NCBI GenBank assembly: GCA_951406725.2
Contig: OX597817.1
Span: forward strand, 57,846,001 to 57,910,000
Reading direction: 5' to 3'
Length of the DNA stretch: 64,000 bases
Origin: Octopus vulgaris
Taxonomy: Eukaryota
In this document: positions 1,486 through 21,773 of the stretch, one piece after another
How the letters are laid out: every line of letters begins with the position of its first letter
How positions within the stretch are numbered: position 1 is the stretch's first letter
Notes under the pieces: model-generated
What the model saw: the letters and a program-made list of their open reading frames with translations, nothing else
The model's database searches: none
Told to the model about the DNA's origin: nothing
Made by a program: the position numbers and the translations under genes

Positions 1486-1597
1486 CTGTTGCTCCAATTT
1501 CAGCATATGTTTCACTAATTTGGCTATTTCGTTTTGGGATGCTCTCGGAACGGTTTGTCCGACGCACGACAACACCATCCCCTGAACCACCATCAAC
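1486..1597 (-). CDS. Coding exon 6 of PAG1/Cbp-like transmembrane adaptor (gene continues left of window)
   Basis: Acceptor ctctctcgacttag|GTT, donor ACAG|gtaaga. 112 nt, phase 0 in and phase 1 out. Encodes VDGGSGDGVVVRRTNRSESIPKRNSQISETYAEIGAT. Confidence 0.85.
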
Positions 1598-2669
1598 CTA
1601 AGTCGAGAGAGAGAAACAATTTAAATAATTAAACTGAACCAAATAATAACAGCTTGGCAATAAGCTCACAAACATTTTCATTCACATCCATACACAACAT
1701 AAATATTTTCAAAGACACATAATGCCCTGCTTCTGTAAGACAACCCTTTGTTTAGAAATACACACTTCTAGATCGACTCTCAGGGAAAGATGGACGTTAA
1801 GTAATGGCTGGGAACTGAATTAATCCATATACACTATGTACAGTGAATTATATACACTCTCTCAAAACATAGAGCAAGTAATGTATATGTGTGTGTGTAC
1901 ACACACACACACACACGATCAGTTAACGTCTGTTTTTCCATGCTGCAATGGGTTGGATGGCAAGGCAGAAGACTGCATCAAGTCCATCATCATCACTTAA
2001 CGTCTGTCTTTCCATACTAGTTGAGGTAGATTTTCTGTAGCCGGGTGCCCACCCTGTTGCCAACCTTCACCCGTTTCCAAGCAAAGTAATTGTACCCCAT
2101 GACCAGACATAACAGTTGCTACCCAAGGACAAAAATTGTGTTACACAGTGCAATAGTTTTCATACACAGGCCTAATTTTTTTTTGGGGAGGTGGAAGTAG
2201 GGGAGGGAGAGGCAGATTTGTTGAATATTTTTCCTGGAAGACTTGAAACTAACAACTCCACTTATATGACAATGATGCTCATTTACATACATGTCGAGAC
2301 AAGGGTACACACAGAGGCTTCTTTCAGTTTCCACCCACCAAATCCATTCACAAGGCTTCATTTGTCCTGTGAATTATTGTAGGAGACACTTGTCTTAGAT
2401 ACTGGACAGTTGGACAGAACCTAAGACTGGAAATGATGTACACTGCTCATATGATAGTCAAGGTAAGGAAACAGAAATACATGCACGCACAATAGATTAG
2501 GGCTTCTTCCAGTTTCTGTCTATTAGTCACGAGGCTTTGGTTGGTTCGGGGCTATAGTAGAAGACACTTGCCCAAGGTGCCATACAGTGAGATTGATGTT
2601 GAGTCCATGTAGCCACCCACATAGTCACGCCTGTGCCTCATGTATATACACACACACACATTCTAAAGA

Positions 2670-2995
2670 CATAAGCGTTGGCTGGGTCATGCCCTCCATC
2701 ATCAACCAGGAGGATCCATCTACGGAGCAATTGCCCCAGCTCCCCTTCAGGGTCGGCAAAAGCGATGTGGTGGACAACGAAAAACCTGGATGATAACAGT
2801 CAAGACTGATCTGGAACCCAACTCAGGCCCTCATATCTACAGCGTTTGCCACTGGAATAAGGAGTGGTTGGAGATCATGCAGTTGTTAGCCTCAAATCGC
2901 CAGGTCTGGTCAGCGTTTGTGAGAGATGCAGCATTGAGGATGAAGCCAGCTCAACCCACCCCGGGTGAATGCTGTCTCAAGGCAAGAGAGACAAG
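2670..2995 (+). mobile_element. RTE-clade LINE 3' fragment
   Basis: Translates RWLGHALH...GGQRKTWMITVKTDLEP...LASNRQVWSAFVRD, a typical RTE C-terminus after the RT domain. Confidence 0.8.
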
Positions 2996-3894
2996 CTCTA
3001 AAAAGCTGGATTTCCCAAACAATTTAGTCAAGTTGTAGAACCAAACAACAATCGACTTTTAAGCTTACTCTGCACACCAGAACAAATACACAAATATTTA
3101 CAGAAAACAGAATTATTGACAACACTTGACAACCAGTACCATATAACCATAAAACTAGCAGATGCCATGGCCCCAGACGAACCCCTCCCCTCCTGCCACA
3201 TTAACCGATTTCGAATGGCGCGTTACATTTTTCACACAATTAGGTTTGACACTGAGTTGTCTCCCCTGCCTTTACTTTGATACAGATATAGCTTGTTCAT
3301 CATTTTAACGTCTCCTTTTCAATACTTGCATGAGTCAGACGGAACTTGCTGCGGTATATATTCTACAACCAGGTGCCCTTCTAGTCGCCAACCTTCATCT
3401 GTTTCTAAGTAAGGTAATATTTTCCCTGGAAGACTCGAAACTAACAACTCCACTCGTATGACGATGCTCATTTACATACATCATGTCGAGACAAGGGTAC
3501 ACACACACAGGCTTCTTTCAGTTTCCACCTACCAAATCCATTCAAAAATCTTCGGTTGTAGGAGACACTTGTCTTAGATACTGCACAGTTGGACAGAACC
3601 TAAGGCTGCACGGTTGAGAAGCAAACTTAATTACATAGCCACACCTGTCAGCTTTCCTTGACACAAATATAACATCATTCAGTCATCTAATTTCATAGAC
3701 AAATATATTTGTATCAAGGCAGTATTTTATAGAAATAAATACTTCCTGTAAAGAACTTTCACCTGTTTTACAAAAGGTTTTTCTTTATTGCAAGTGCATT
3801 GAGTGCACAGAGATAGTGCACAGGCCGTAAAACAAGCCCAACAACATATTTTCTTTTGTTCAAATGGGCTCATATGAAGAAGGCTAACTTTCAT

Positions 3895-4310
3895 GCACAG
3901 GTGTGGCTGTGTGGTAAGACGCTTGCTTCTCAACCACATGGTTCCAGGTTCAGTCCCACTGTGTGACACCTTTGGCTATCGTCTACAGCCTTGGGCTGAC
4001 CGAAGCCTTGTGAATGGATCTGGTAGCCAGAAACTGAAAGAAGCCTGTTGTGTGTGTGTGTATATATATATATAGATAGATAGATAGATGAGTGTGTGTA
4101 TGTGCCTGTCTGTCTGTGTTCCCCTCCACTGTTTGCCTACCGGTGGTGGTGTGTTTATGTCCACATAACTTAGCAGTTCGGCAAAAGCGACCGATAAGCT
4201 TTGATAAAAGAGTTCTAGGATCAATTTGCTTTAATCGAAAAGAAAAAAAAACGTTCAGGGCAGTGCTCCAGCATGGTCACAGTCAATTGACTGAAACAAA
4301 TAAAAGATAC
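3895..4310 (+). mobile_element. tRNA-derived SINE, family B (representative; more than 12 copies or fragments in window)
   Basis: Head with A/B-box-like GTGGCTGTGTGGTAAG...GGTTCAGTCCC, body GGCAAGTGTCTTCTACTATAGCC (partly deleted in this copy), internal (TG)/(TA) microsatellite, tail GCTCCAGCATGGCCACAGTC...GAAAC. Other copies at about 23252-23642(-), 37705-38060(-), 42280-42630(-), 43205-43560(+), 43607-43955(-), 46243-46608(-), 54640-54968(-), 60322-60762(-), 63580-63955(-). Confidence 0.85.
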
Positions 4311-4580
4311 ATCTATAAATGCATGATGGACTTTTATGCAGTTTTTATCCAAGGCTCGTATGGGAGAAGAAACTTGCTCAAGGTGAACATTTAATAATAA
4401 AGTAATAAATTGAAATGTCTGTCTCCCTCACTATTTTTGCACACATGTACGCGTTTGCCTTAGACACAACATAAGACTCTGTGGTTGCCAGATGAACTAC
4501 TTAACCGCACACACCTGCCTGCACCTTTATTTTATATCCATTAAATTCACTCTTTATAACACAAAACGGTTTGTACTTAC

Positions 4581-4702
4581 GGTAGCGTAGGTGTTCTCTG
4601 TTTCTGGAACAGTTTCGTACATGTTTAGCAGTCTTTGTCGGGCATTTATACTGGATAGTGACTCCCTGGCTGTCACTTTGGTGTAGGGGTATTCTGCTTT
4701 AG
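4581..4702 (-). CDS. Coding exon 5 of PAG1/Cbp-like adaptor
   Basis: Acceptor tctctgtctactttag|CT, donor TACC|gtaagt. 122 nt, phase 1 in and phase 0 out. Encodes (P)KAEYPYTKVTARESLSSINARQRLLNMYETVPETENTYAT. Confidence 0.88.
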
Positions 4703-5465
4703 CTAAAGTAGACAGAGAAGAAAAGAAATATTAAGGTAGAGGAGAGGGTTATGGCAAATGTGAGGGAGGGGGTTACAGGAGGCTAGGGTTTAAAAGAATA
4801 CAAGTTTATGGGGTGGATGTTTTGGCACTGCCTATTTGGTGGCTCTGATTCTCTTTTATGGGTGTGAGGAGAGGGAAAGGGTTTATGTCAATCAAGTTCA
4901 ATTAATAAATTTTAATGACCCACTCCTGCCCTTCTCTTTCCATTTTTGCGTATGTGTGTGTGTTTGCCACTAGTGCCAAAGCCATGAATGTTCAAGAACT
5001 GGTCAAATCATCCTCATTATCAAAATCCAAACAGCTGTGCCCAGTTTGCAGCACTTCTGAAATGGACAGGGAGAGGATGAAGAACAACAAAACCCCAACA
5101 CATGGACTCTTAGAGTAGGAAGCAGTGCAGAGGTAGTCTTCAACGTTTGGCCATTCAATTTCTGTATTCTTCAAATTTCCAAAAGGTCAATGAGTAACAA
5201 AGTTGAACAGACAGATCTCAAGACCCACCTGGATGCACACAAAGAAAACTTTCATTTCTTTTTACATTTGCAGACCAAACAGAGACGAAAATCAAAGAGA
5301 GGAATTTTAAAAAGAGATTTGAATAAGGACATTAAGTTAAAAGTGACATCAAAGACCAGGTTCAGTTGTTTGTAGCAGAATGTTTTTTTTCTACAAGCAA
5401 TGAAGGCTGACAGCTGATAATGTTAATCTGGTCAATGGATTAAATCTTGTGGTCAGTGGTGAGAC

Positions 5466-6025
5466 CAACTCTTTTGTTACCATATTTCTGTTGAAATAAG
5501 GAAGAATTTGTCAAAATAACTTTGTCGTTTTTAAGCTGAAGTTTGGAATGTAAATCAACATGTAATTTTGATGAAATTGTTTTAATTTTTTTTTTTAACT
5601 TTATCGTGCTGCTACTGCATAACTCTCTCTGAGAAATTTTGAAATGCAATCATTCTAATTTTGTAGAACAGTGAATTTATTTCATTTGAAATTCGATAAG
5701 TTTCCAACAGCGATTTAGCACCAACAGCTAGCAAGGCCAAGCTACTCCGGACTGATGAAGTGCAACTACCCTGAAACTAGTCTCTGGGTGCTGGCTTTGT
5801 TGGGTGGAGGTGCTTATCTCCCCTGTTTGAAAACTTAAGGACACAGAACGTTTGTGTCATGTAGCCAACTAGAAACGGTGTTTCTTGGGGCTAAATAGCA
5901 GTAGCACTTTTCCTTTTCATGGGGCTGCAATATTAAGTTGGCAACAAGCCATCACTTTATGTTTTGATTACTTTAAAACATGAAGATTATAACTTAGAAC
6001 CAGGGGTTGGTATCAAAAGGGTTAA
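5466..6025. mobile_element. piggyBac-like (TTAA-flanked) MITE interrupted by a ~360-bp insert
   Basis: Ends CTCTTTTGTTACC and GGTATCAAAAGGGTTAA match the ~230-bp copies at 38965-39196 and 45547-45774. Sequence ~5597-5960 is absent from those copies. Confidence 0.65.
5746..5788 (+). ncRNA. Minimal type-I hammerhead ribozyme (intact core)
   Basis: Stem I UCCGGA/UCUGGG; CUGAUGA at 5752-5758; stem II AGUG/CCCU (one mismatch); GAAA at 5773-5776; palindromic stem III ACUAGU; GUC cleavage triplet ending at 5782. Confidence 0.8.
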
Positions 6026-6409
6026 AAGATCAGAGGGACAGCAGACGAGTAAAGTGGTCAGCTTCAGCAGGAAATGTGAGAGGGAAACATAATATAATGA
6101 TCCCACAGTAGATTACAGGTACTGATTGATCTTGTATGCAGGATAAGTGGAGACTATGGCTTCACTTGACCTTCTTCAAAGAGAAAGATAAGTGACAATA
6201 GGCTTGAGAAATCACTTAGAGTTGGTGGTGAAGTCATGATATTCATACATTTCCCAATAAAAAAAAAGTGGTTTCAAGTGAGAGTGGAATCATGGGCTAG
6301 GGTCACCGAGAAGTTATTGAGTATGGCACGATAAGTGACCAGTAAGTGTGGATATTGTGCAATACATTGATCATTCTAAATTTGCAGAATATACAATATT
6401 GGCCACTTT

Positions 6410-6552
6410 ACTGGTGGGTGTGACCATTGGACCACTGAAGCTTGACCTAACACTAGTGGGTGTGGCCAGTGGACCACTGAATCTGGACTTAACACTAGTG
6501 GGTGTGGCCAATGGACCACTGACTGGGCCTAACACTAGTGGGTGTGGCCACT
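6410..6552. repeat. ~42-bp tandem minisatellite (~3.3 units)
   Basis: Unit ACTAGTGGGTGTGGCCAxTGGACCACTGA...CTAAC repeated. It explains ORF 6348-6578. Confidence 0.85.
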
Positions 6553-6824
6553 ATCAACACACAAAGCCTGTTTTATGAGACAAGTGTGTAGCAAAGTGGG
6601 CAGATGAGTGGGGATAGTGGTGGCAATGAAGGATTGAACCATGGAAGGAGGAGGAGAAAGTAGAAGGAAGAGTGAGAGATGAAAGCTGGAAGTCCACAAC
6701 TGCAAAATAAACCATGATTACGTTCACAGAATTAGTGAAAAATCTTTATGTATTAAAACATGTAGTGGTGGTCATATAGGAGATAATGGTAGAGGTTGTA
6801 TAACTGGGGTGGGGTGGGGGGATG

Positions 6825-7137
6825 TATTGGATTGCCAGATAAATTTGTTTTTTTTCCCACATTTATTTTATTCCCTTCCAATGTTATTTGAATTAATGCA
6901 AAAACATTTTTATCAACAACGGCATGGAAATGAAGACGTGGCTTGAAGAATTTCTCAAGTCAAGATCCAGTGATTTCTACTGTCAAGGCATTGGCAAGCT
7001 GATGGAGCAGTGAGTTATGAACAACGAAGGGGAATATATTATTGACTGGGTTGTGAAAATTGTAGATGATAAATAAAGATTAAAATAAATGAAAAAAAAA
7101 AAAAAAGAGATGGACAAAATAATCTGATAACCTGATA
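6825..7137 (+). mobile_element. Internally deleted mariner (MITE) with transposase C-terminus
   Basis: Imperfect TIRs TATTGGATTGCCAGATAAATTTGTT and GACAAAATAATCTGATAACCTGATA. Interior reads MKTWLEEFLKSRSSDFYCQGIGKLMEQ*VMNNEGEYIID, the mariner C-terminal signature. Confidence 0.75.
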
Positions 7138-7225
7138 GAAGCATAGGTTGTAGTGTGGGGACTAAAAGGGTAGTGTTGGTGTTGGGGTGTGGTAGTGTAA
7201 GGTAATAATCTGAACATTTACTTAC

Positions 7226-8289
7226 GTGGCTGAGCAACAGGCTCTGGTAAAAGGATGGGACCAGCTCCAGCTGGAGCAGCATCCACATGATCTGGTGGCG
7301 GGTTGTCACGGTTGAGGAAGTCCTCCTCCTTGTAGGCCCGCGGTGGTTCTGGTGGTGGTGCCATCAGTATATCAGGGGGTACATCTAGGGTTACAGCGAT
7401 ATTGTTCGGGCTTCTTGGCAACTTGTTCACTGTAGCGTAGTCGTCCTCGACAATGTGACCTGGCAGGTCATCAGGAGACAGGGGTGATGTGGTCTCGGGG
7501 ACTGCTATGTTGGCCGACGCTCCTGTTGCTGCGGCTATCGGCAGTAATACTGGCCCCGCCGCACCACAGCAGCCGTCCGTCGGTCTGCCGTCCACGCTAG
7601 AGTAAGGGTCCTCTACATCGGGTCTTGCCAGTACAAGGTCTCCCGGGATCTTGGAATACGGGTCGTCCGTGTCGTCGTCGCCGGGTACAATACTATAGGA
7701 GATGTCACGGAATGTCGCATCTGTCGGAGTGAGGGCCAGAGCCAGTGGGGGCGCTGCTGGTCGCTTCTTGCCGAGCCTTAGCGATGCATAAGTATTGTCT
7801 GCATCATCATCATCCTCTTCATCACCATCAACAGAGGCGTACAACTGCTCACTGCCATAGTTATCAAAGTCAGCCTGCGTCAATGTGATGCAGCCACTCT
7901 TCTTCACCACAACCGATGATGATGCTGTCCCCACACGGTCATACGCCGTGTCGTACGTATTCTCCCCTTCCTCTTCCACTCCCTCCTGCTCCTCGCGTCT
8001 CCGCACATCATTGTTGTTGTTGTTGTTGTTGCAACTGGTGCCTTTGCCACCAGTTCCAGTCCCTGGCTGTCCAATGTGGTTGTAAGGGTCCGGGTCCTTG
8101 TTCACCCCGTCCTCACTGGCTGAATTACAAGCGGGCAAGTGGCAGCTCTTGCGGTTACCATTGGGGAGTACATTGGGTGACTGGTTGACCATAGTGACAT
8201 CAGGTAATGGGTGACTGGTGGATGGACCAGGGGGAGACGGCAATTGACGACCATTTGGTAGCACGGAACCATCCATGGAACTAGGTCTG
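7226..8289 (-). CDS. Coding exon 4 (1064 nt) of PAG1/Cbp-like adaptor: acidic, Pro-rich, multi-tyrosine cytoplasmic region
   Basis: GC-rich 352-aa ORF. Acceptor ttttctcttcaacag|CAG, donor CCAC|gtaagt, phase 2 in and phase 1 out. Motifs RQLPSPP, YNHI, YDRV, YASV, YASL, YSIV, YSKI, YSSV, YATV, PPPEPPR. Confidence 0.93.
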
Positions 8290-8398
8290 CTGTTGAAGAG
8301 AAAAAAAAAACAGATATTAATACAGTTCTATATTTAAGGGATGAGGAATTATGAACATTATTTACATTTGATAGCTATTTGTCCTCATCTTGTTTGTT

Positions 8399-8444
8399 AA
8401 CACAATGTTTTGACTGATATACCCTTCAGCCTTCATCAGGTGTC
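8399..8444 (-). ncRNA. Degenerate minimal hammerhead ribozyme in inverted pLTR
   Basis: Minus strand reads GACAC CUGAUGA A GGCUG...CAGUC AAAA CAUU GUGUU. GAAA has mutated to AAAA. Confidence 0.65.
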
Positions 8445-8715
8445 TTGGGGAAATTTTGAGCCTGGGTCCTCATTCCTAAGGTATTTGTTCTTAAAGAAAC
8501 TAAAAGAAGCAGCACATATGCTTGGACACAACAACCTCCTAAGCAGACTGAGTGCAGATATGAGTAGCATATGGGAACCAGTATTAAGGAAGGATAGGAA
8601 AATATTAGATTTATAAGCCCTAAAACTTCACTCCATAATTGCCCATGCGCATATGTAACCCCAAGATTCCGAGTTCGACTCCAGGCAGTGACCTGAATAA
8701 TAATAATAACATGTA

Positions 8716-9208
8716 CATTGTTTCGTCTTGGTATAAAAGACGGGCTACAGCAAATATTCTGTTCAATACTACAGATTTACTTGTCAGTTGTTTGACCATA
8801 ACCAGTTGAGCATGTCCTTTAGTGGCTGACGATATGTGCATCTCTGATCACGAGCAGAAGTAGTGGGGGAGCATCATAGCCATGTGTTGAGAAGGATTCT
8901 TTGGGGTTTGAATAATTCACCTTTAGAAACATGGGTGGTTCATTCAACATCCTTAAACAACCTTTATTCGGGGATCTTTTGTGTGGAATGGGTTACTCGA
9001 TTAGAAGAAAATTCTAACTGAGCCCCACCTGCAAGGTCATGTGTTGTTTATCTTGATATGAGATCACCATGTCGCGTACATATGGTTGTGACGCATGTGC
9101 CTGGTGTACCCTATCAGACGGGTAATCATGATGGGTATAGAGGGCTTCATATATTTTACCCCAGTGTCACTTTGATGGTATGCACTGCTCTCTCACTCAA
9201 TAATAATA
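8716..9208 (+). mobile_element. 5'-truncated retroposon 3' end with (AAT)n tail inserted in an (AAT)n tract of the Penelope repeat
   Basis: Flanked by AATAATAATAATAA (8696-8709) and AATAATAATA (9199-9208). Separates the Penelope-like ORF end from the right terminal repeat. Confidence 0.45.
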
Positions 9209-9256
9209 TCGGAAAAATACCTTAGGAATGAGAACCCAGGTTTGAAATTTCCCCAA

Positions 9257-9299
9257 GACACCTGATGAAGGCTGGAGGGTATATCAGCCGAAACGTGTT
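9257..9299 (+). ncRNA. Minimal hammerhead ribozyme in pLTR (cleavage site eroded)
   Basis: GACAC CUGAUGA A GGCUG-loop-CAGCC GAAA C GUGUU. Relative to the inverted copy it lacks ~3 nt at the stem III/cleavage triplet. Confidence 0.7.
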
Positions 9300-10754
9300 A
9301 ATAACAAACAAGATGAGGACAAATATCCGTCAAATATAAATAATGTAAAAAAATATAGATATTAATAACAATTTGTTGCACAACAAGAAAAAGCAAAACG
9401 GCACAGACAACAATATATTACTGGTATTTACTTGATGAATCCCCCCTCTTCCTCTTGTGAAGATGCGTAGCTTAGTGGTTAGGGTGCTTGGCTCATGATC
9501 ATAAGGTTGTGAGTTCAATTCCTGGCGGTGCATTGTGGCCTTGAGAGCAAGACACTTTATTCCCTGTTGCTCCAGTAATTCAGTACCAGTAATTAAAAGG
9601 GTCAGCCATGTCTCATTCTGTGTCCAGCTGAATCTTCCTTAGAACTAAATTAAAGGTACATGGGTCTGTGGAGCGCTCAGCCACCTGCACGCTAATTCCA
9701 CGAGCAGGCTAACACCTGTTGTCATAATCAATGGAGTGCCAGCACTTCCTCTGTAGGGTCCTGAAATGGGTCACCAACGACTCGTCTAGAGGTCACAGCA
9801 TAAAGAGGTTTGTGTAAGGAAGGACATCCATTTGTAAAACCATGTCCGAACAAATACGACGCACACAACAGAGCCGGTTGGTGTTTCTCTGCTGTGCATG
9901 CTACATCAGTGGTTCCCAAAGTGGGCCGTGAAAAGATCCAGGTGGGTGTTGAAGTAAAATGGGGTGATAATGGGGCAATGGATGCAAAAAAAAAACAAAG
10001 AAAATAAAGGGTTAATTAGGTCAAGATTTATTTGTGTTGGTTCTAAGGTCACATTCCTAGTGTCCCCACCCCACCACCACAGACATAAACCATTTTCTGC
10101 TGTAAATTCAAAACATCATCATCGTTTAACGTCCGCTTTCCATGCAAGACCTCAGTCAAATCGTCCAACCCATGCTAGCATGGAAAGCGGACGTTAAATG
10201 ATGATGATAATGTTTCATCATCATCTGTGCTACATGATTGTGAAACCAGTCCAACCCATGCTAGCATGGGAAAAGAGATGTAAAATGATGTTGATGATAA
10301 TGATATCTATCTAGCTTAGCATACAAAGATTTGCACGAAATACATGGTAAGATTTTCAGCAAGAGGTGGACTAGGCTTGTAAGAGCATGCTCATGGTTCT
10401 GTTTTAGAACTTGGTGGGCACAGGTTCAACCCTTCAATTCCTTGATACAGTTAAGAACCTTTGGGAGCTCCTCAGCATCACAGTTATCCAGTTCATCAAC
10501 CACACCCTTCCCTTCATCCACCTTGGATGATCAGTGAAGGCCAATGAAACAGCAACCTTTTTTTTTTCTAGACAAAACGATTAAATATGGTTAAAAAAAG
10601 AAAAAATTTAATTCCTATCTGTAAAAATCTATGCCAGCTGATGAGGTCGGCCTGGTCAGATTACACTATACTAATGAAATTTAATAGATTAAAGAAATAT
10701 TTGGAATTGTCCCTGGTCTACGAATAATGGGAATTTCCTTTCTCAACAATGAGA

Positions 10755-10866
10755 TATAGAGAGATAGATAAACAAATAAAGACATAGATAGATAGATAGA
10801 TAGACAGACAGACATATAAATAGACAGGCAGACAGACATATAGAAAGACAAATATATAAACAGACA

Positions 10867-10916
<50 letters not shown>

Positions 10917-10956
10917 TATAAGAAAGAAAAATATATATATATATATATATATAGAA

Positions 10957-10987
<31 letters not shown>

Positions 10988-11100
10988 AATAGATAGATAG
11001 ATAGACATATATATATATAGATAGACAGATATATAGATAGAAAGACAGACAGACATATAGATACAGAGAGAGATGGATGATTAAAGAGACAGACAGATCA
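10755..11100. repeat. Compound microsatellite (GATA/GACA/TA/GA)
   Basis: Directly visible simple repeats. Confidence 0.95.
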
Positions 11101-12795
11101 ATAAATGGGTTAAAAAGACAGAATGATGATGATGATGAATACTGCATGAATAAACAGACAAACATTACTATTATTGTTGTTGTTGTTGTTGTTATGTTCT
11201 TTTTAAAATTTCGTTTTTTCAGTTGTTAACAGTAAAACAAACGAACAAAGCGACAAATCCAAATCTGTGTGAAGAGTGACAACTTTCTGTTGAGATTATT
11301 AATTGCCAAAAAAGCGGACAGCTTTCATGTTTTCTGGCCTTGATGGGAAACCAGAACTACTGAATGAAGGTTTCCTTTGATCTAGGGACACATAGAATTT
11401 CAAAGAGTTTTTACAAACTGAAAAATAACTCCCCCACCCCGTTCCCAATCACCACCTCACCCTTGCCCCCTGCTAAACTTTATTTTATAAGTTTCTTTAC
11501 TTAGGTGGTTATTCACTGGAATTTGTGTGTGCGTGTGTGTGTGATGTGCAGGGAAGGGTTACAAGATGTTTCCTTCACATACATTTTAAGAACTGAAAAA
11601 AAAAAAAGACAGGAGAACAAAAACAGTACAATCCCCAGACATACTTATACATACACGATAACACACACACACACACAGCCACACGCACACACACACACAA
11701 ACTTGCTGACAGTTTTCCAATTAAAGTCAACTTTGGGTTACTCAACAACAAAAACCATTGTCATGGAAACTGAAGTTCTGAAACGTAAGGTGGGGTGGTG
11801 GGTGGTGGTGACAGGAAGCCATGTCTGAGAGGAACACCCTTTCCCCATGACACATTCTATTTCTTTGTCACTTTAGATATTTAGACAATTTTTAAAAAAT
11901 CAAAAAGAAAAAAATTAGTCTGTGTGTCTTCTTGCTCATGTCTGGTCCTTGTTAATGATGAAACTGTCTGATGGATAGTGACCTCTGACCTTTCAGCCTT
12001 CCCCTCTGAAGTCAATATTCTGTTACGACTGCTTATTAACAAAACTGCCAGCCTCACTCCCTCATCTACTGAGGGGAGGTTACATGGAAGTGTGGTGGGT
12101 AGTTGAAGGTGGGGTAGGGTTAGGTAGACAGGGTAGGTACTGTAAGTAAAGCAGGGGTGGCTGGAAAAAGGACAAGAATAGTCCCTAACTCCACCAGACC
12201 CTTCAACATTCAAACATCATCATTAACATCAATGAGAGAGAAACCTGCTTAAATTAGCTGGCACCTGTGCTGGTGCCACATAGAAGGCACCTGTGCTTGG
12301 GCCACATGAAAAGCACCCAGTACAATCTGTAAAGTGGTTGGCATTAGAAAGGACATCCAACCATAGAAAGCATGCTAGACCAGATGACTGGGACCTGGTG
12401 CAGCCCTCCATCCTTGCCAGCTCCAATTGAACTGTCCAACCCATGCCAGCATGGAAAATAGACATTAAATTATGCTGATTTCTCTCAAGACTACTCCCAA
12501 AACATCTTAAAGAGAAGAAGGGCACATCGAACAAAGAAGGCCATGGCTATATAAAGAGATGAGTTGGTCATGGCTGGATGGCTTTTGATCATAGATGTGC
12601 TTGATCAAGGCTGACTTAAGGCTAGGCAAAAATACCAGCAATATCATCATCATCATCATTAGTGTGTGTGTGTCTATGTATATGTGTGTGTATGTATGTA
12701 TGTGTGTGTGTGTGTGTATGTATATGTATGTGTGTGCGTAAGTGCATGAAATACAGAGTAAGAGAGTAATAATAGAAAAAAGAGCTGAGACTCAC

Positions 12796-12905
12796 GTGAA
12801 CATGGCCAGATCTGATGTCCAACTTTTGGTAGGTGCGATACCATTTGATAATGGAATGATTCCAGTTTCAAAATCAACAGCTAAGTGATCAGATTCAATA
12901 ATGGA
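12796..12905 (-). CDS. Coding exon 3 of PAG1/Cbp-like adaptor
   Basis: Acceptor gttgtatttcag|TCC, donor TCAC|gtgagt. 110 nt, phase 0 in and phase 2 out. Encodes SIIESDHLAVDFETGIIPLSNGIAPTKSWTSDLAMF(T). Confidence 0.82.
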
Positions 12906-13271
12906 CTGAAATACAACAACAACATCACCACCATTAAAAAGAATCAATTACAACAACAACAACAACAACAACCACAAGCTAACAAAGGAGCTCCTTGCCA
13001 TGCGCTCACATGACAGGAGCATTAGAATACAAGGTAGTCGTAGACATATGGAGACAGCTGTATGAAGATTGGAATAGTCAAGGCTGAAATAGGTTTCATG
13101 GGATGTTTTGGTCGGCCTTTTCCAACGTTACAGCAACAGTACTGCAGAGAGAGTAACGTAACCACTTCCGCTGCGCCTGGGCTGTTTTCAGAAGCAAGTG
13201 CTTGGCCATGCCTTCACTCATCGATACGCCATGAAGGAAAGACAATATGTAGAGATGTCAGATATTGGTTG

Positions 13272-13703
13272 CAAGCTGGCAGAAACGTTAGCACGCCAGG
13301 CGAAATGCGTAGCTGTATTATGTTTTGAGTTCAAATTCCGCTGAGGTCGACTTTGCCTTTCATCCTTTTAAGGGTCGATAAATTAAGTACCTATTTCTTT
13401 AGTACCCACAAGGGGCTACACACAGACGGAACAAACAAGGACAGACAAATGGATTAAGTCGTTTATATGGACCCCAGTGCGTAACTGGTACTTAATTTAT
13501 CGAACCCAAAAGGATGAAAGGCAAAGTCGATCATGGCAGAATTTGAACTCAGAACGTAGCGGCAGACGAAATACCGCTAAGCATTTCGCCCGGCGTGCTA
13601 ACGTTTCTGCCAGCTCGTCACCTTAGGGGATCGATGTAATCGACTTAATCCGTTTGTTTGTCCTCTCTGTGTTTAGTCCCTTGTGGGTAGTAAAGAAATA
13701 GGT
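13272..13703. mobile_element. tRNA-derived SINE family A: + copy interrupted by an inverted copy (13392-13622)
   Basis: Head GCTGGCAGAAACGTTAGCAC...GAGTTCAAATTCC (B box), body GTCGACTTTGCCTTTCATCCTTT, tail GTGGGTAGTAAAGAAATA. Other copies at 18280-18848, 27885-28080, 36485-37080, 40946-41155, 50513-50721, 62621-62829. Confidence 0.85.
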
Positions 13704-15156
13704 TAAATGTAATCTTGCATATCTACCTCTCAGTCCCCTCACTCCAAATTTTCAGCAGTATTTCACACTTACAATCCTCCCCCGGGGCTTCTGTTTTGTG
13801 TTCTCATTAACGAAGTACAGGGTAGTAAAAAGATTTGCCTAAAGTTCTGTGGAGACGGACTGGAATTTGTCTGTGTTGAAAACCATTGCTCTGAACGACA
13901 TTATGGGAAACAGTCCAGCCGAAGTTATCTCCCTTGCAGCAGCTTTGAGAAAAAAACTTTTTGTTTTTCATTTACTCAATGTGGACAAGCTTTCTTTACA
14001 TCCCGGTGGTTAAACAGAACCATCGTCACCATTTTATGTCTACTTTTCCATGCTTGCACGAGTCGGATGGAATTTGTTGAAGCACATTTTCTACGGCTTG
14101 ATGCCCTTCCTCTCACCAACCCTCACCCGTTCCTTCCAAATATGGTAACATTTCTCTATAGCTGGGCACAACTTTCCTGGATGTTTAGAAATGAAAGACA
14201 CCACTTGTATGACAGGGACGCTCATTTACATCTATCACAAGAAGTCAAGGCAAGGAGACAGTCTGAGCTGGAGATGTTGAGCCTCTCAGAGGAGATGACA
14301 GGGAATCAAGATTGTGTTATGTTGGGCTTCAAAAGACCCATCCATTTCTGCAGAATTGAGGCTCTGTCAAGCTTTCCTCCCCCACAGCTTATCTTCTATT
14401 TTCTTCATTCCCCTCTCCACTGGACTGATAACCTCTGTGTCCAACTTGTTCCCTATCTCTAATCATGTGCCACACTGTTTTCACTCGGTCCACTCCCTAT
14501 TCCGTCTCATATTCATATTGTACCTGGACATTTTTCTTTGTTTCTTTTTTTCTTTGTCTCTCTCGTTCCAGGTGGGCAAGCCAGGTATTCACCTCTTCAG
14601 CAAGATACCTGATCTTCTCCCTCCATTATAGTTTCTTTCTCTAGCATGGAGAACGGACGTTAAACAAATACCCCACTACGTGGCAGATATCTGGCAGATA
14701 CTTGGTGACCTCATTGGAGGTGGTGCCACGTAAAAAGACACGCAGCAGACTCTGTTAAGTGGTTGGCATCCAGCTGTAGAAATTATGCCAAAGCAGACAT
14801 AGAACCTGGCAGAGCCCTCTGGCTCATCTGCTCTTGTCAAACTCTCCAAACCATGCCAGCATGGAAAAAGGGACGTATGATAATGATGTAAGTGTGTGTG
14901 ATGGACTTCTTTCAGTTTCCGTTAACCAAATCCACACATGCGACGGGCTTCTTACAGTTTCTGTCTACCAAATTCATTCACAAAGTTTTGGATGACCCAA
15001 GAAGACATATGCCCATATGCCATGCAAAGTGACTGAACCTGGAACTATATGGTTGGGAAGCAAGCTTCTTACCACACAGCCACTCATTGTGTGTATGTAT
15101 CTGCATCAGTGATAAATAATTTTTAGCTCTTCACAAAATGAATGAGGTATTCTTAC

Positions 15157-15229
15157 CTGAACAACATCTCTGTGGGTACTATCAGTCATCATTTTAGGGA
15201 GTGTTCCAGTTTTGCTTTGCTCTTTTTTG
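15157..15229 (-). CDS. Coding exon 2 of PAG1/Cbp-like adaptor
   Basis: Acceptor ttttttctgcttcag|C, donor TCAG|gtaaga. 73 nt, phase 2 in and phase 0 out. Encodes (S)KKEQSKTGTLPKMMTDSTHRDVVQ. Confidence 0.85.
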
Positions 15230-15333
15230 CTGAAGCAGAAAAAAAAAAACAGGGGAATAAATGAATGAATGTCAGATCAGGAAGATGTATATGTGTGTGT
15301 GCATGAGCATTTGTGTGTGTCTGTACACATGTG

Positions 15334-15605
15334 CAGAGTGTAAATGATTTAAGAGAAAAACTGGGTCTACGAGGCATCAGATGTTGTGTGCAAGAGAGAA
15401 GACTGCGTTGGTATGAAGTGAGGACGACTGCATAAAGAAGTGCCGATCTCTTATTATGGAGGGAACCTGTGGAAGGAGCAGACCCAGGAAGATGTGGGAT
15501 GAAGTGGTGAGAAACAATTTTTGGATGTTGAGTTTCACAGAGAAGATAAGGGACTGTCTGGCAATTTGCTGTACTTGAGAAGACATGGTGAGCCAAGTAA
15601 AACTT
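15334..15605 (+). mobile_element. RTE LINE 3' fragment
   Basis: QSVNDLREKLGLRGIRCCVQERRLRWY...EGTCGRSRPRKMWDEVV. Same family as 39545-39900. Confidence 0.8.
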
Positions 15606-16684
15606 GTGGTCATCCATACAGGTTGTCCTTTATGACTGAGCCTTCTCTCCTTCACACACACACAACCTGTCCTCTGTCAAAGCACCCCTACAACCCAGTT
15701 TTCCAACATACCCACCATCCCTCTACCCATGACCACCACCCACTCTTCCTTGCGTGTCTATCTGCATGCTCTAAAACATCTACCACACCCGCCTCTCAGC
15801 TGCTCCATTTTCTCCCACCATCACTCACTACAGCCATGTCTTCCCCCATCTCTAAACATCCCCCTTCATACTCTTATGGAACATCCCTCCTTCTAACCCC
15901 TCTGGACCACTTATACTCCACCCCCTCACTCACTGTTTCCTGTAGATAAACCACAATACATCTCTAATGCCATCTATTTTCTCTCTCCTTCCTCTCCTGG
16001 GGCAGCCAAGTGTCTCCTCCATCATACTCCAGCCCCTCACCTGACTCACAGCCACTTCCTTTCATTCCACTCTTTCTCTCAGCTGAGAGGTCTTTGTCTT
16101 GCAAACTTCTTGCTGACTTCATGAGTGCCACACACACAACAGGTTTCTTCCAGTTTCCACCAACCAAATCCACTATCAAGACTTTGCTTTGCTCGGGGCT
16201 ATAAAAGAAGACACTTGCCCAAGGTACCATGCAGTGGGACTGAACCTGGAACCATGTGGTTGGGAAGCAAACTTTTAACCACACAGCCACGTCTGCACCT
16301 ATTAAGGGCAGGTATGGTGGTGTGAATAGCCTCAAGCTGACCAATACTTTGGAGTGAAATTTGTAAGTGAAAACTGCATGGAAGCCTGTTGTGTGTGTAA
16401 CATACGTTTACATTCGGCACGTCCTCACATGACACAGTCCAAGCATAACTGTGTGGTCATGACTACGTTCCCTGCGTATATTCCTCAACCTGTAGATCTG
16501 CAATTGTGAAGACCAGAGGAATAATAAATACCTGAATGGAAAAAAATCAGGTATGGGTAGGTGATGGGAAGAGTATCCAGGCATACACTCACATAATATA
16601 GCTTCAATAATAAAGTCTTTGACCAATCCATGGCAAGCAGGTCTAAAGTATTCTTCATCATTGTTTAACGTCTGTCCACTTCCC

Positions 16685-17050
16685 ATCGTTTAACGTCCGC
16701 TTTCCATGCTAGCATGGGTTGGACGATTTGACTGAGGTCTGGTGAACCAGATGGTTGCACCAGACTCCAGTCTGATCTGGGAGTGTTTCTACAGCTGGGT
16801 GCCCTTCCTAACGTCAACCACTCCAAGAGTGTAGTGGGTGGTTTTAAAGTGCCACCGGCACAAGGGCCAATTGGGCAGTTTGACAGGAGCCGTCCAAGCA
16901 GAAGACTACACCAGGCTACTGTGTCTGTTTGGGCAGGGTTTTTACAACTGGATACCCTTCCTGGCACCAACCACCCTGCAGAGTGGATTGAGTGTCTTTT
17001 TACATGGCACCAGCAGAGGTGAGGTCAGTTTCAGCATGGCTTTTTTACAG
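16685..17050 (-). mobile_element. Family C short retroposon with (GAT)n tail (representative; about 20 copies or fragments)
   Basis: Recurrent CATCGTTTAACGTCCGCTTTCCATGCTAGCATGGGTTGGAC...CTACAGCTGGATGCCCTTCCTAACGCCAACCAC. Copies at about 1228-1375, 12255-12470, 19725-19940, 22545-22880, 27350-27660, 28085-28295, 29730-29945, 31910-32440, 48825-49610, 59025-59440, 62463-63240. Confidence 0.85.
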
Positions 17051-17773
17051 CTAGACACACACACGCATACACATATGCATGAAAGAGAAAACCAGATGAC
17101 CACAACCTGCTGTTTCAAGTGAGCAGAGGTGCTTCTGTGAGAATGTTCTGTGAGAATGTTCAATTTGCAAGAAAAAACAACCAAATTCCTCTCTTAACCT
17201 CCACCCCCACTCCAAACAAAAACAAAAAGAGAACATGTTAGACAGTGTAGTCCAAGATAGGCGTGTCTGAATAAAAGAATGGTTGGTCACAACATTGATT
17301 GCAGGTGTGCTAAATCAGGGTTGACCTTGTGGTAGGGAGAGGGGGAGGGGAGGAGGAGGATAAAAAGCGACAAAAACAACTGTTTTAAGACATAAAAGTA
17401 TTGTGGGGGGATAAATTCATCTTGTGTGCCAGGGCTGGCTATATTAGAAACAAACCCTCATCAGACTTCCCAAATTTGGCCAACAAGCCTTGTAGGGGTG
17501 GGGGGAGCAGATTACAGTACATTTGTCTAGGGAAAAGGATCTTCTAAAGACAGACAGACAGAGGAGAATAGTCAACAATGGTAGTTCTTGTTTAACTCTA
17601 GGTGAACCTGTTCAAGGAGGCCTATGACCAAAGGCATTCCAGCCATGACCATCCTGTCGCTTATGTTTCTCGGCAGAGAGTATCGTTTTAACAAACATTA
17701 GAGAGAAGGATATAACTTAAGGGCGATACGGCTGTTATTTCTACCAGGTTTTACAGAATACAGAAAGCAGTGT

Positions 17774-17826
<53 letters not shown>

Positions 17827-19950
17827 AGGACAGAGTAGAACCAATCTCTTCAACAGTTTTCTGATGAATCAGAGAAAAATAAAAATCAATTTGTCTCCGG
17901 CACTCATTAATAACAATGAAATAAACGCAAGATGATGCTGTAGTATGTTTAGCCTCAAGTCAGGTCCAGTGAGGCATTCCAGCCATGACCAACTCCTATT
18001 ACACTGTATCAAAGACTACATTAATGTGTCCATCGTTGTTATTTAGCCCCAGGTTGGGGCTGATCAAAAATATTCTAGATGGGACTATTCTCATATCCAG
18101 ACATATTGTAGCAACAACCACATCATATAATGTGAATTTTTTTTTTTTTTAAGACAGTAGAGTCTGCTTTGAGGATGTCTGGCTGCTGTTTCTAGCAGGT
18201 GGTGGTGGTGGTTGATGATGTCAGTGGTAGTTGTAGATGTTGCTATGAAGATAATGCAAGCATCAATAATCATCATCTTTTTTGCTGTAGGTACAAGGAC
18301 AGGAATTGGGAGACGGGGGGGGGGCTAGTCAGTTACATCAATCTCAGTTCTCAAGGATGAAAGGCAGAGTCGATTTTGAGGACAGATATGAAATGCTGTG
18401 AAGCATTTTGCCCTGCGTACTAACGATTCTGCCTTTAATAATGATCCTTCCTACTATAGGCACAAGGCCTGAAATTTTTTTTTGGGGGGGGGGACTAGTC
18501 GATTACATCAACCCCAGTGTTTCACTGGTACTTAATTTATTGACCCTGAAAGGATGAAAGGCAAAATCGAACCTTGGTGGAATTTGAACTCAGAATGTAG
18601 CATTGGGCGAAATACCTATTCTTTACTACCCACAAGGGGTTAAACAAAGAGGGGACAAACAAGGACAGACAAATGGATTAAGTCGATTACATTGACCCCA
18701 GTGCATAAATGGTACTTAATTTATCGACCCCGAAAGGATGAAAGGCAAAGTCGACCTCAGTGCAATTTGAACTGAGAACGTAGTGGCAGACAAAATACTG
18801 CTAAGCATTTCTCCCGGCGTGCTAACGATTCTGCCAGCTCGCCGCCTTAATAATAGTAATAATAATAATAATGATAATAAATATTGTTGTAGACATCAAT
18901 GATGGGGTGGGGGTGGAGAGGGATATCAATGATATTAAGTCATCTCATTGACGATGATGGTATGACAGTTGTAGGGGTGGTAGTAGTGACAACTGATGGC
19001 AATAACAAATAGTGATGACAGCAGTGATAATGTATGCCATCAGAAATAACAAAACATCGTTTGAATGATGAAGATATTCTTATTAATTTCATAGGATGCG
19101 CACCATACTTTGGTTTCTGTTTTGTTTGAAAATTCTCCTGTATCAATTTACCAAACATTGGTTCCACTGCTTGTATTTAACTCATTAACATTCCGTCCCT
19201 CTTTATTACTTTCACTCTATGACTTATCCTGAGGAACTTCACCAGACACATCCCACCATATACTCTACTTGTACCCACTCTTTCAGCCATTGGGTATCGA
19301 CATCCAAACTCCTTAGTCAAATGGCGAGAGGAATCTTCTCGTGCAAGTTACTCGCTGAGTCTGCCACCCCCAGTGGCACATGAAAAGCACCCAGTACACT
19401 CTGTACAGTGGTTGGCATTAGTAAGATCATCCAGCTTCTAAGTGAAACGCATAAGCAAGAAGTGGCTCTCTCTCCTGTCTAGATCACAGTAATGACCACC
19501 CGACTCATGGCAGCAGGGAAAGCAGAGATAAACAAACCACGACATTGTATATATTAACTCAAAAGGGAAGAGAAAAACAGAATGTGGAGCATCCATTAAT
19601 GATAACTGGTCCTCTGTTGGTTACGATGACGTGGGTTCCAGTTGATCCGATCGATGGAGCAGCCTGCTCATGAAATTAACACACAAATGGCTGAGCACTC
19701 CACAGACATGCATACACTTATGGTTGTTGCCAGTGCCACCTGACTGGGCCTGTTCAGGTGGCACATAAAAAGCACCCACTACACTCTTGGAGTGGTTGGC
19801 GTTAGGAAGGGCATTCAGCTGCAGAAACCTTGCCAGATCAGACTGGAGCCTGGTGCAGCCTCCTGGCTTGCCAGTTCTCAGACAAACCATCCAACCCATG
19901 CCAGCATGGAAAGCAGACATTAAATGATGATGATGATGATATATATATAT

Positions 19951-20250
19951 GTGGAGGCGCAATGGCCCAGTGGTTAGGGCAGCGGACTCGCAGTCGTAGG
20001 ATCGCGGTTTTGATTCCCAGACCGGGCATTGTGAGTGTTTATTGAGCGAAAACACCTAAAACTCCACGAGGCTCCGGCAGGGGGTGGTGGTGATCCCTGC
20101 TGTACTCTTTCACCACAACTTTCTCTCATTCTTTCTTTTGTTGGCCTGCTCGCTTAGCCAGTGGGGTGGCATCACTGAAGGCTAAAACAATGTGAAGCGC
20201 ATTGTGACCAGTGATGTGTCGCAACATCTCATGGCCTGGTCGGTCACGTG
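19951..20250 (+). mobile_element. tRNA-derived SINE family D
   Basis: Head GGAGGCGCAATGGCCCAGTGGTTAGGGC...GGTTTTGATTCCC. Near-matching inverted copy at 58080-58396, related heads at ~9460, ~33530, ~51550 and ~55848. Confidence 0.8.
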
Positions 20251-20289
20251 AGATATATATATATATATATATGGCAGGGAGAGATTCAT

Positions 20290-20570
20290 TTGAAGAACAT
20301 CATTATGAGAGCATATTTCAAATGAGATAATTCAAGAAGAGAATAGAGTGACTGATATAATCGCAGAATACCAAAAGCACAAGTCCCGCTGGGCCAGACA
20401 TGTCACAAGATCCACAGACAACAGGTGAACCTGTGCAGTTGCTGAGTGGTATCTGAGAGAGTGGAAAAGGCCACTAGGAAGGCCTCCCCGACAATGGGAA
20501 GCCAATTTAGTTAACCAATTTGGGTCAAAATGGAAAAGAATGGTACAATCAAGTGAGAACTAGAAGCGCA
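20290..20570 (+). mobile_element. RTE LINE 3' fragment
   Basis: VTDIIAEYQKHKSRWARHVTRSTDNR*TCAVAEWYLREWKRPLGRPPRQWE, matching the RTE-1-type RWAGH...W.P...KRP.GRP..RW motif. Confidence 0.8.
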
Positions 20571-21540
20571 TTGTGATCAGGGGTGTACAACAGCATCTGA
20601 ATGTTTGGCTGATACTGTGATATAATGAGCTTCCATACAGTTGCCAACAGTCAATTTCATGCCCAAGATTACAGAAGACCCTCGGGCAAGGTGCAATGCA
20701 GTGGGATTGAACTTGCAACAACACAGTCATAAAAGTAACAAAGCAAACCCCATACAGCATTTGACATTTCTTTTTAATATAAAGCACAAGGCTGTTATGT
20801 TGTAAATATTCAAAATTATAAAAGTCAGGAAAAAAACAAAAACAAAAAAGGTATTTTTTCCTAAAAATTATTGATTCTGTATCCCACGTTACAATACTGA
20901 TGGCAGATAGGATGATGATAACAATAATAAGAACAACAACAACGGTGATGCTGGTGTAGTTGTGGAAGGTTGTTGAATAAAGTCTGATGGATGGACGACA
21001 ATAGTTGATACAAGTGGGTGGTGGTAGGAGTAGATGGGAGAGAGAGTAAGAGGACATCAGACATTGAAAGGTGTGTAGGAGAGGGGTGATGGTGGTGGTG
21101 ATAGTGATGATGATGATGATGCTGATCTTTGTCTCTTTGGAGGAAATCAAAGAGTCTTTGAGAGACAATAGCGGAAGATTTACAATAAGCAGCAGAATGT
21201 GTGCGTGTGTGCGCACATGTTTATTGTGTGCATATGCCTGTGTATGTGTGTGTGCATGTCTGTATGTGAGTGTGTGCATGCATATGTCTGTGTATGTATG
21301 TTTATGTCTGTGTATGTATGTTTATGTCTGTGTATGTATGTTTATGTCTGTATGTATGTATGTTTGTGTCCATGTCTGTGTGTCTATCGTTTATGCTCAT
21401 ATATATATGTGTGTATATCTCCATGTAAATATGCGTATACGTTTATGTCCGAGTATGTGTCTGTATGTCAGTATGTTCATGCCCACATGTGAGTACTAGG
21501 AGCAGGAACCCAGGGACCAAGTCCCTGCCCCTCTACTTAC

Positions 21541-21692
21541 CTCTCCTTACATGTATTACAGAGAGCGAAGAGAAAGACCAGGATCAACATGGCAGCTAGC
21601 CCTCCAACTAAACCACCAGATATGATGCCAATAGTGTCTTCTTTTGGTAAAGAGGCTTCCAATAGCTTACGACCAGCTACGATACCATCCAT
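21541..21692 (-). CDS. First identified coding exon: short ectodomain, TM helix and CxxC (exon acceptor at 21700)
   Basis: Acceptor tattttgtag|CTTGGAAAATGG (ATG at 21692 with A at -3 and G at +4), donor GAG|gtaagt, phase 2 out. Encodes MDGIVAGRKLLEASLPKEDTIGIISGGLVGGLAAMLILVFLFALCNTCKE. An upstream in-frame coding exon cannot be excluded. Confidence 0.88.
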
Positions 21693-21773
21693 TTTCCAAG
21701 CTACAAAATAACAAAAAACAAAAATTAAATACATATAATTATACTGACAGTCTGTCAATAAAGTTAACAACTG

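Follow-up and report, generated by a model that had tools for sequence, protein, structure and literature searches.

The 64,000-nucleotide (nt) stretch of Octopus vulgaris DNA analysed here, OX597817.1 positions 57,846,001 to 57,910,000 (hereafter, the window), contains on its minus strand six of the seven coding exons of a gene for a single-pass membrane protein. This protein is likely of the transmembrane-adaptor type and PAG1-like in its working, and we do not assign it to the PAG family. By analogy with PAG1/Cbp, we estimate a probability of about 70% that it acts as a palmitoylated platform on which Src-family kinases dock and to which Csk, their inhibitor, is recruited. The protein belongs to an unnamed single-copy family that extends from molluscs to amphioxus and has the motif order of PAG1; this makes it a direct Csk-anchor candidate and brings the origin of raft adaptors within reach of testing. 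Csk, conserved across animals, requires a membrane anchor. In the excerpts of two papers, the transmembrane Csk anchors named are all from vertebrates, and the candidates in the fly are dASPP, paxillin, and cadherin (PMC5909926, PMC3492796). A literature search whose coverage excluded most subscription journals and orthology databases turned up no paper describing a PAG1 relative in an invertebrate, so the novelty is provisional.

Gene structure and protein layout

The preliminary description of this DNA had proposed a gene of six exons and about 544 codons. The six exons, joined via GT..AG introns, amount to 544.3 codons; residues 1-544 include 16 tyrosines, and the joined translation corresponds to the database protein P0001. 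However, that model was truncated. Exon 6 ends at a phase-1 GT donor with no stop codon, and a further coding exon, the seventh (857 nt), is located within a 309-residue open frame immediately left of the window. The six-exon model was therefore incomplete because the window edge cut the gene. With exon 7, the protein is 829 amino acids (aa) long and has 23 tyrosines, as P0001 does, and it gains the best-conserved C-terminal sites, YETV, YEEV, and YEDV. In NCBI records, P0001 is a hypothetical protein in O. vulgaris and the uncharacterized LOC115210338 in O. sinensis. In gene order, the six introns between the coding exons are in phases 2, 0, 2, 1, 0, and 1. The signature exon (exon 5) is present as a single copy in the octopus genome (G000). 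The exons and protein features, all on the minus strand, are listed below (TM, transmembrane; pLDDT, predicted local distance difference test).

21541..21700, minus: coding exon 1; ATG at 21692 (coding 21541-21692); outer stub, TM helix, CxxC
15157..15229, minus: coding exon 2; residues 51-75
12796..12905, minus: coding exon 3; residues 76-112
7226..8289, minus: coding exon 4; residues 112-467; RQLPSPP, acidic tyrosine array, YATVNK (Y396), PPEPPR
4581..4702, minus: coding exon 5; residues 467-507; signature YTKVTARESL, predicted helix 478-492, YETV, YATV (Y505)
1486..1597, minus: coding exon 6; residues 508-545; GGSGDGV, YAEI; phase-1 donor to exon 7
G000:C4:57843675-57844531 (outside the window), minus: coding exon 7; residues 545-829 and stop
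21660..21671, minus: RKLL (residues 8-11), in the outer stub; candidate site of SKI-1/S1P type
21552..21620, minus: single TM helix, residues 25-47; hydropathy 2.63 versus 1.41 for the next best; helix with the top pLDDT of the N-terminal half
21549..21560, minus: CNTC (C45, C48), predicted palmitoylation site, then KESKK; read from the sequence
8229..8249, minus: RQLPSPP (126-132), predicted SH3 ligand, +81 from the first Cys
7338..7355, minus: PPEPPR (424-429), second proline motif; counterpart PPVPxK in amphioxus and hemichordates

The layout is that of a transmembrane adaptor, as had been suggested: a short outer part, one TM helix, a tyrosine-rich tail, and no Pfam family above its cut-off. 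The single helix and the short outer part (about 24 residues) without a signal peptide were borne out by hydropathy, structure prediction, and RNA-like contigs (see below), and all of the tyrosine motifs listed earlier, together with RQLPSPP, PPEPPR, and CNTC, are present in the sequence. Among the 23 tail tyrosines, 17 have V/I/L at +3, compared with a V/I/L background of 15%, and none forms YxN, the Grb2 site. In a chance test, RxLPxxP fell within +60 to +142 of the first Cys in 43 of 26000 shuffles. The protein has an isoelectric point of 4.9 and an acidic tail. The structure prediction gave a pLDDT of < 50 for 651 of the 829 residues and no strand elements, with short helices at 478-492, 736-751, 794-806, and 813-828; in this model, the protein was shown to have no folded catalytic domain and a tail that is mostly unstructured besides the short helices.

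In the working mode that we propose, the protein would insert into the membrane with its N-terminus outside and without a signal peptide, and palmitoylation of C45 and C48 would direct it to raft-like membrane. The SH3 domain of a Src-family kinase would dock onto RQLPSPP, which we take to fit the class I SH3 consensus. The kinase would phosphorylate the tyrosine array and stay held via YETV, YEEV, and YEDV (Y733, Y757, and Y810). Csk prefers Y-A/S/T-x-V sites, and such sites would recruit it and switch the kinase off, with Y396 and Y505, rather than Y262, as the best candidates. A YEEV-type site is described as a Src SH2 type in the excerpt of PMC3492796.

The junctions of exons 2-7 were set from the GT-AG fit and contig-derived open reading frames (ORFs). 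The same joined frame occurs in P0005, an 823-aa protein from a Logan contig of 2873 bases, and in the P0002 and P0003 clusters, and the whole-length ORFs sit on Logan contigs of 2.9-6 kb, compared with a coding span of 24 kb in the genome. Exon 4 was present in 20 of the 24 listed runs. None of the sequencing runs is recorded as RNA, and "RNA-like" here is a guess from contigs stopping at splice sites. In four runs from four studies, one contig of 3.5-3.8 kb per run covered exactly 21541-21701, and its loose ends matched exon 2 (15200-15229) and an upstream exon at locus L008. The junction between the TM exon and exon 2, which the preliminary description had put forward as a check, was thus found in all four runs. 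In the same four runs the acceptor at 21700 was used, so another exon precedes the TM exon. The upstream exon ends at about G000:C4:57930085, 62 kb upstream of the TM exon and outside the window, and its in-frame reading continues for 25 codons until a genomic stop. If this exon continues unspliced across the 379-434 bases that three contigs contain upstream, the first usable start would be ATG 21692. Locus L008 also has a 41-codon upstream ORF with a strong start context about 380 bases upstream of the exon's donor, which would belong to the 5′ leader if the exon is unspliced.

An annotated isoform, P0004, has 61 additional hydrophilic residues from the upstream exon plus another exon 36 kb beyond. 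A signal-like stretch is absent from both octopus forms (the main form and P0004), and we rejected the P0004 extension as an ectodomain, given its hydrophilic character and lack of such a stretch. A large ectodomain exon upstream would have spoken against the earlier proposal; no ectodomain-coding exon was seen in the main form in the RNA-like contigs of the four runs, in which rare variants are dropped.

Distribution and conservation of the family

A first homologue search with residues 466-615 returned 27 proteins, of which the named ones were all from molluscs, and a profile of 26 of these, run against 1.8 billion proteins, gave 121 hits. Of the 108 new ones, ten were checked for taxon: nine belonged to Lingula, Branchiostoma, Diadema, Tubulanus, Capitella, Owenia, Ptychodera, Amphiura, and Saccoglossus, and one had no taxon. 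The Branchiostoma, Saccoglossus, and Lingula genes are LOC118405124, LOC102808639, and LOC106158758, respectively. The names of these relatives were uninformative, and the unnamed family comprises molluscs, a brachiopod, annelids, a nemertean, echinoderms, hemichordates, and amphioxus. Judged from these sequences, the family is wider and older than first proposed and is not confined to molluscs. Five deuterostome proteins matched the mollusc profile with a probability of 99.7, a partly circular value because they had been picked with that profile.

Motifs were counted in 44 long members, 39 of them TM-bearing, excluding fragments of < 580 aa and the proteins P0155 and P0157. RxLPxxP (+69 to +130, counted from the first Cys) and a Yxx[VIL][TS]xRES block were both found in 39 of the 39 TM-bearing members. 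The juxtamembrane cysteines of these 39 were CxC in 34 (33 by script and P0058 by eye), CxxC in three, and a single Cys in two; the pair was present in all 21 full-length molluscan members, as CxC in 20. The Cys pair, RxLPxxP, and YxxVTARES are conserved from octopus to amphioxus, and the second proline motif and many YxxV sites are also kept in relatives. In the main, the cysteines and tyrosines are retained in orthologues, but the PAG1-like CxxC spacing, although present in octopus, occurs in only 3 of 39 members. Because CxC is the family norm, the likeness of the octopus protein to the PAG1 juxtamembrane peptide is partly accidental.

Eleven of the 23 octopus tyrosines correspond to tyrosine in 23 of 23 non-cephalopod molluscan rows, and Y473 and Y505 are tyrosine both in these 23 and in all 16 rows of the cross-phylum alignment. 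In the same 23 molluscs, YATV (Y505), YESV (Y733), and YAxV (Y396) were retained in all and YEEV (Y757) in 21. The tyrosine of YSSV (Y341) is kept in 23 of 23, but its four letters vary, and Y396 and Y505 are better kept. YASV (Y262), ISYSIV, and TAYDRV were not retained outside cephalopods in the alignment with the 23 non-cephalopod molluscan rows. We rejected the reading of the latter two as immunoreceptor tyrosine-based inhibitory and switch motifs on this ground; Y228 was placed differently in the two alignments.

In some lineages, tandem DDPYNKVK-type repeats multiply the tyrosine sites (P0032, P0053, P0054, and other long members). P0155 and P0157 were rejected as members, as they have neither RxLPxxP nor the RES block. 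They are unrelated single-pass receptors with lectin-like ectodomains, and the YDH repeats in their tails are the motif of the first tyrosines of the molluscan family.

Relationship to vertebrate adaptors and alternative readings

As described in the excerpts of three papers, PAG1 has a 16-residue outer part, a TM helix at 17-36, CSSC, proline-rich motifs at 131-138 and 257-263, and ten tyrosines (PMC2213442), its Csk site is Y317 (PMC3342071), and its C-terminus, VTRL, is a PDZ ligand (PMC4861716). The octopus protein resembles it in the short signal-less outer part, the one TM helix, the dicysteine followed by basic residues (CNTC-KESKK), two proline-rich motifs arranged in the same order, numerous YxxV/L/I sites, the presence of a YSSV sequence, and the acidic tail. 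A class I PDZ end (S/T-x-L/V/I) occurs in 14 of the 44 family members, compared with 2.4% per position, and several of them end in TRL, like VTRL. The offsets of proline motif 1, proline motif 2, and the tyrosine site from the first Cys are +94, +220, and +280 in PAG1 (calculated from the published excerpt), +89, +208, and +278 (YAQV) in amphioxus, +91, +224, and +320 (YSVV) in Saccoglossus, and +81, +379, and +460 in octopus. In the ESM Atlas, the nearest named cluster to the octopus protein was LIME1/PAG (0.92, 183/256 features), and the amphioxus protein was nearest to a LIME1/PAG cluster (0.91) and then a PAG cluster (0.90).

Several results weigh against a PAG1-like identity. The Pfam PAG family (PF15347), which the preliminary description had offered as a check, reached 23.6 bits against a cut-off of 27, over residues 29-79 and in Octopus sequences only. 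None of the 121 profile hits matched PAG or LIME1 (PF15332), neither a PAG/LIME1-domain protein nor a vertebrate was recovered from the 1.8 billion proteins searched with the profile, and sequence searches of the PDB gave TM-level or short-motif matches and no Cbp peptide. At 829 aa with 23 tyrosines, the octopus protein is far from the ~432 aa and 10 tyrosines of PAG1, and it ends in SQEK, without a PDZ ligand. The third offset in amphioxus and Saccoglossus (+278 and +320) was picked post hoc among several tyrosines, the top Atlas hits for the octopus protein were unnamed arthropod clusters (up to 0.95), and Atlas features can mirror a common layout without shared ancestry. Only one of four markers of the PAG1 region is on the gene's contig: the sole DUF4772 gene found in the octopus genome (L010, G000:C4:66554227-66554634), presumably of the ZNF704 type, is 8.7 Mb away, whereas TPD52 and MRPS28 are on C3 and stathmin is on C23. 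The human gene order, according to the excerpt of PMC2966422, is MRPS28, TPD52, ZBTB10, ZNF704, PAG1; because the contig represents 6.3% of the genome, a count of one in four is weak. PAG1 also differs in having CxxC rather than the CxC norm of the family, and YxxVTARES, GGSGDGV, and the RxL[LM] stub have no counterpart in the PAG1 descriptions excerpted here. A Pfam PAG match in the octopus genome, one of three candidates, was rejected as a stop-ridden chance match (E = 1.32).

Among other adaptors, LIME1, a Csk anchor according to the excerpt of PMC3492796, gives the nearest named Atlas cluster (a 605-aa chordate cluster) to the octopus and amphioxus proteins, but PF15332 was unmatched in every scanned member. 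LAT, NTAL, LAX, and GAPT represent the general transmembrane-adaptor layout (excerpts of PMC3342071 and PMC4861716), which the octopus protein shares; however, they have Grb2-type motifs, whereas the octopus tail lacks YxN and has SH3 ligands. In the Atlas list for octopus, 19 of the 30 hits were clusters without a common Pfam family, and the top three were mostly arthropod (0.92-0.95); the unnamed arthropod clusters are probably arthropod family members, perhaps beyond the reach of the hidden Markov model (HMM) search.

A new feature of the family, as read from its sequences, is a putative S1P-like RxL[LM] site in the outer stub, located behind an ectodomain in four relatives. In 22 of the 39 TM-bearing members, RxL[LM] precedes the first Cys by 35-45 residues, compared with an occurrence in 1 of 722 tail windows, which differ in composition. 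RKLL, RRLL, RHLL, and RLLL/M match the SKI-1/S1P consensus R-X-aliphatic-Z (excerpt of PMC8310232) and are on the side predicted to be luminal. A hydrophobic N-terminus, considered a signal peptide from hydropathy only, and 100-190 Cys-containing residues precede the motif in amphioxus, Ptychodera, Saccoglossus, and Tubulanus; folding of these four ectodomains was unsuccessful, with a mean pLDDT of 46.7. The members with the shortest stubs, including named bivalves, Lingula, and Capitella, lack RxL[LM]. Most molluscan models differ from SKI-1/S1P substrates in having only 7-13 residues preceding the motif, and cleavage of the octopus RKLL by S1P is a tentative proposal. The conserved site and the ectodomain of some members suggest a route from a processed type I protein to a signal-less adaptor.

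On balance, we consider the odds to be slightly in favour of shared ancestry of the family with PAG1/LIME1. The fuller proposal is an invertebrate pro-orthologue of PAG1 plus LIME1, that is, a single-copy bilaterian Csk anchor. Originally, it would have carried a signal peptide and a small ectodomain that site-1 protease cut off, and molluscs and vertebrates would each have reduced it on their own to an adaptor with no signal peptide. This proposal is doubtful as a whole, and, if true, would mean that Csk recruitment by a raft adaptor is older than vertebrate immunoreceptor signalling. A comparable minority chance attaches to an adaptor of independent origin, with converged motifs and with other SH2 proteins (phosphatases, Nck, and PI3K), downstream of receptor kinases, as its main partners instead of Csk. 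The missing HMM link to vertebrates in the Pfam scans and profile search is consistent with such convergence, as is the appearance, at 0.83-0.84, of unrelated viral and vertebrate adaptors among the Atlas hits. A bacterial effector (PDB 3iec chain E) has an EPIYA region that weakly matches YAKVNK-type motifs (E = 0.04-0.09), likely through YAxV convergence, and even the unrelated lectin-type receptors P0155 and P0157 match the profile at E = 3e-4 to 7e-4. Common ancestry is instead favoured by the five motif types that occur in PAG1's order and at similar spacing in invertebrate deuterostomes, and by the 171-183 features in common with PAG/LIME1 clusters, compared with 114-131 for viral and SCIMP clusters.

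The outer part bears on an improbable alternative, in which the protein is a receptor with a shed ectodomain: an ancestral signal peptide and small Cys-containing ectodomain would be cut at RxL[LM], and the octopus form would come from unseen exons. The four relatives described above, the retention of RxL[LM] in molluscs, and a phase-1 first intron of 62 kb are compatible with this reading. However, the upstream exon was joined straight to the TM exon in all four runs (the contigs drop rare variants, among which a minor isoform might have been), and the only longer Octopus model, P0004, gains its 61 hydrophilic residues and nothing signal-like. MDG(I/V)xxG(R/Q) starts are common to octopus and heterobranch snails, and amphioxus and Saccoglossus also have alternative models with no signal peptide. 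Still less probable is a role as a membrane tether in trafficking or structure, with the YxxV sites serving for sorting and not for phosphorylation. The adaptin sorting consensus accommodates YxxV/I/L, but the 23 tyrosines in acidic context, YEEV in 21 of 23 orthologues, and an invariant RxLPxxP exceed what sorting needs.

Sequence surrounding the coding exons

The right-hand part of the window, 21701-64000, is wholly inside the 62-kb first intron and contains many microsatellites and repeated short elements; no long convincing coding frame was seen in the inspected part of it. At the opposite end, at 63-545 on the minus strand, two short open frames resemble what we take to be Tc1/mariner transposase pieces. 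Farther out on the minus strand, loci L004 and L005, about 14.4 kb and about 20 kb left of the window, contain open frames of 460 and 285 aa, respectively, which are presumably reverse transcriptase pieces of long interspersed nuclear elements.

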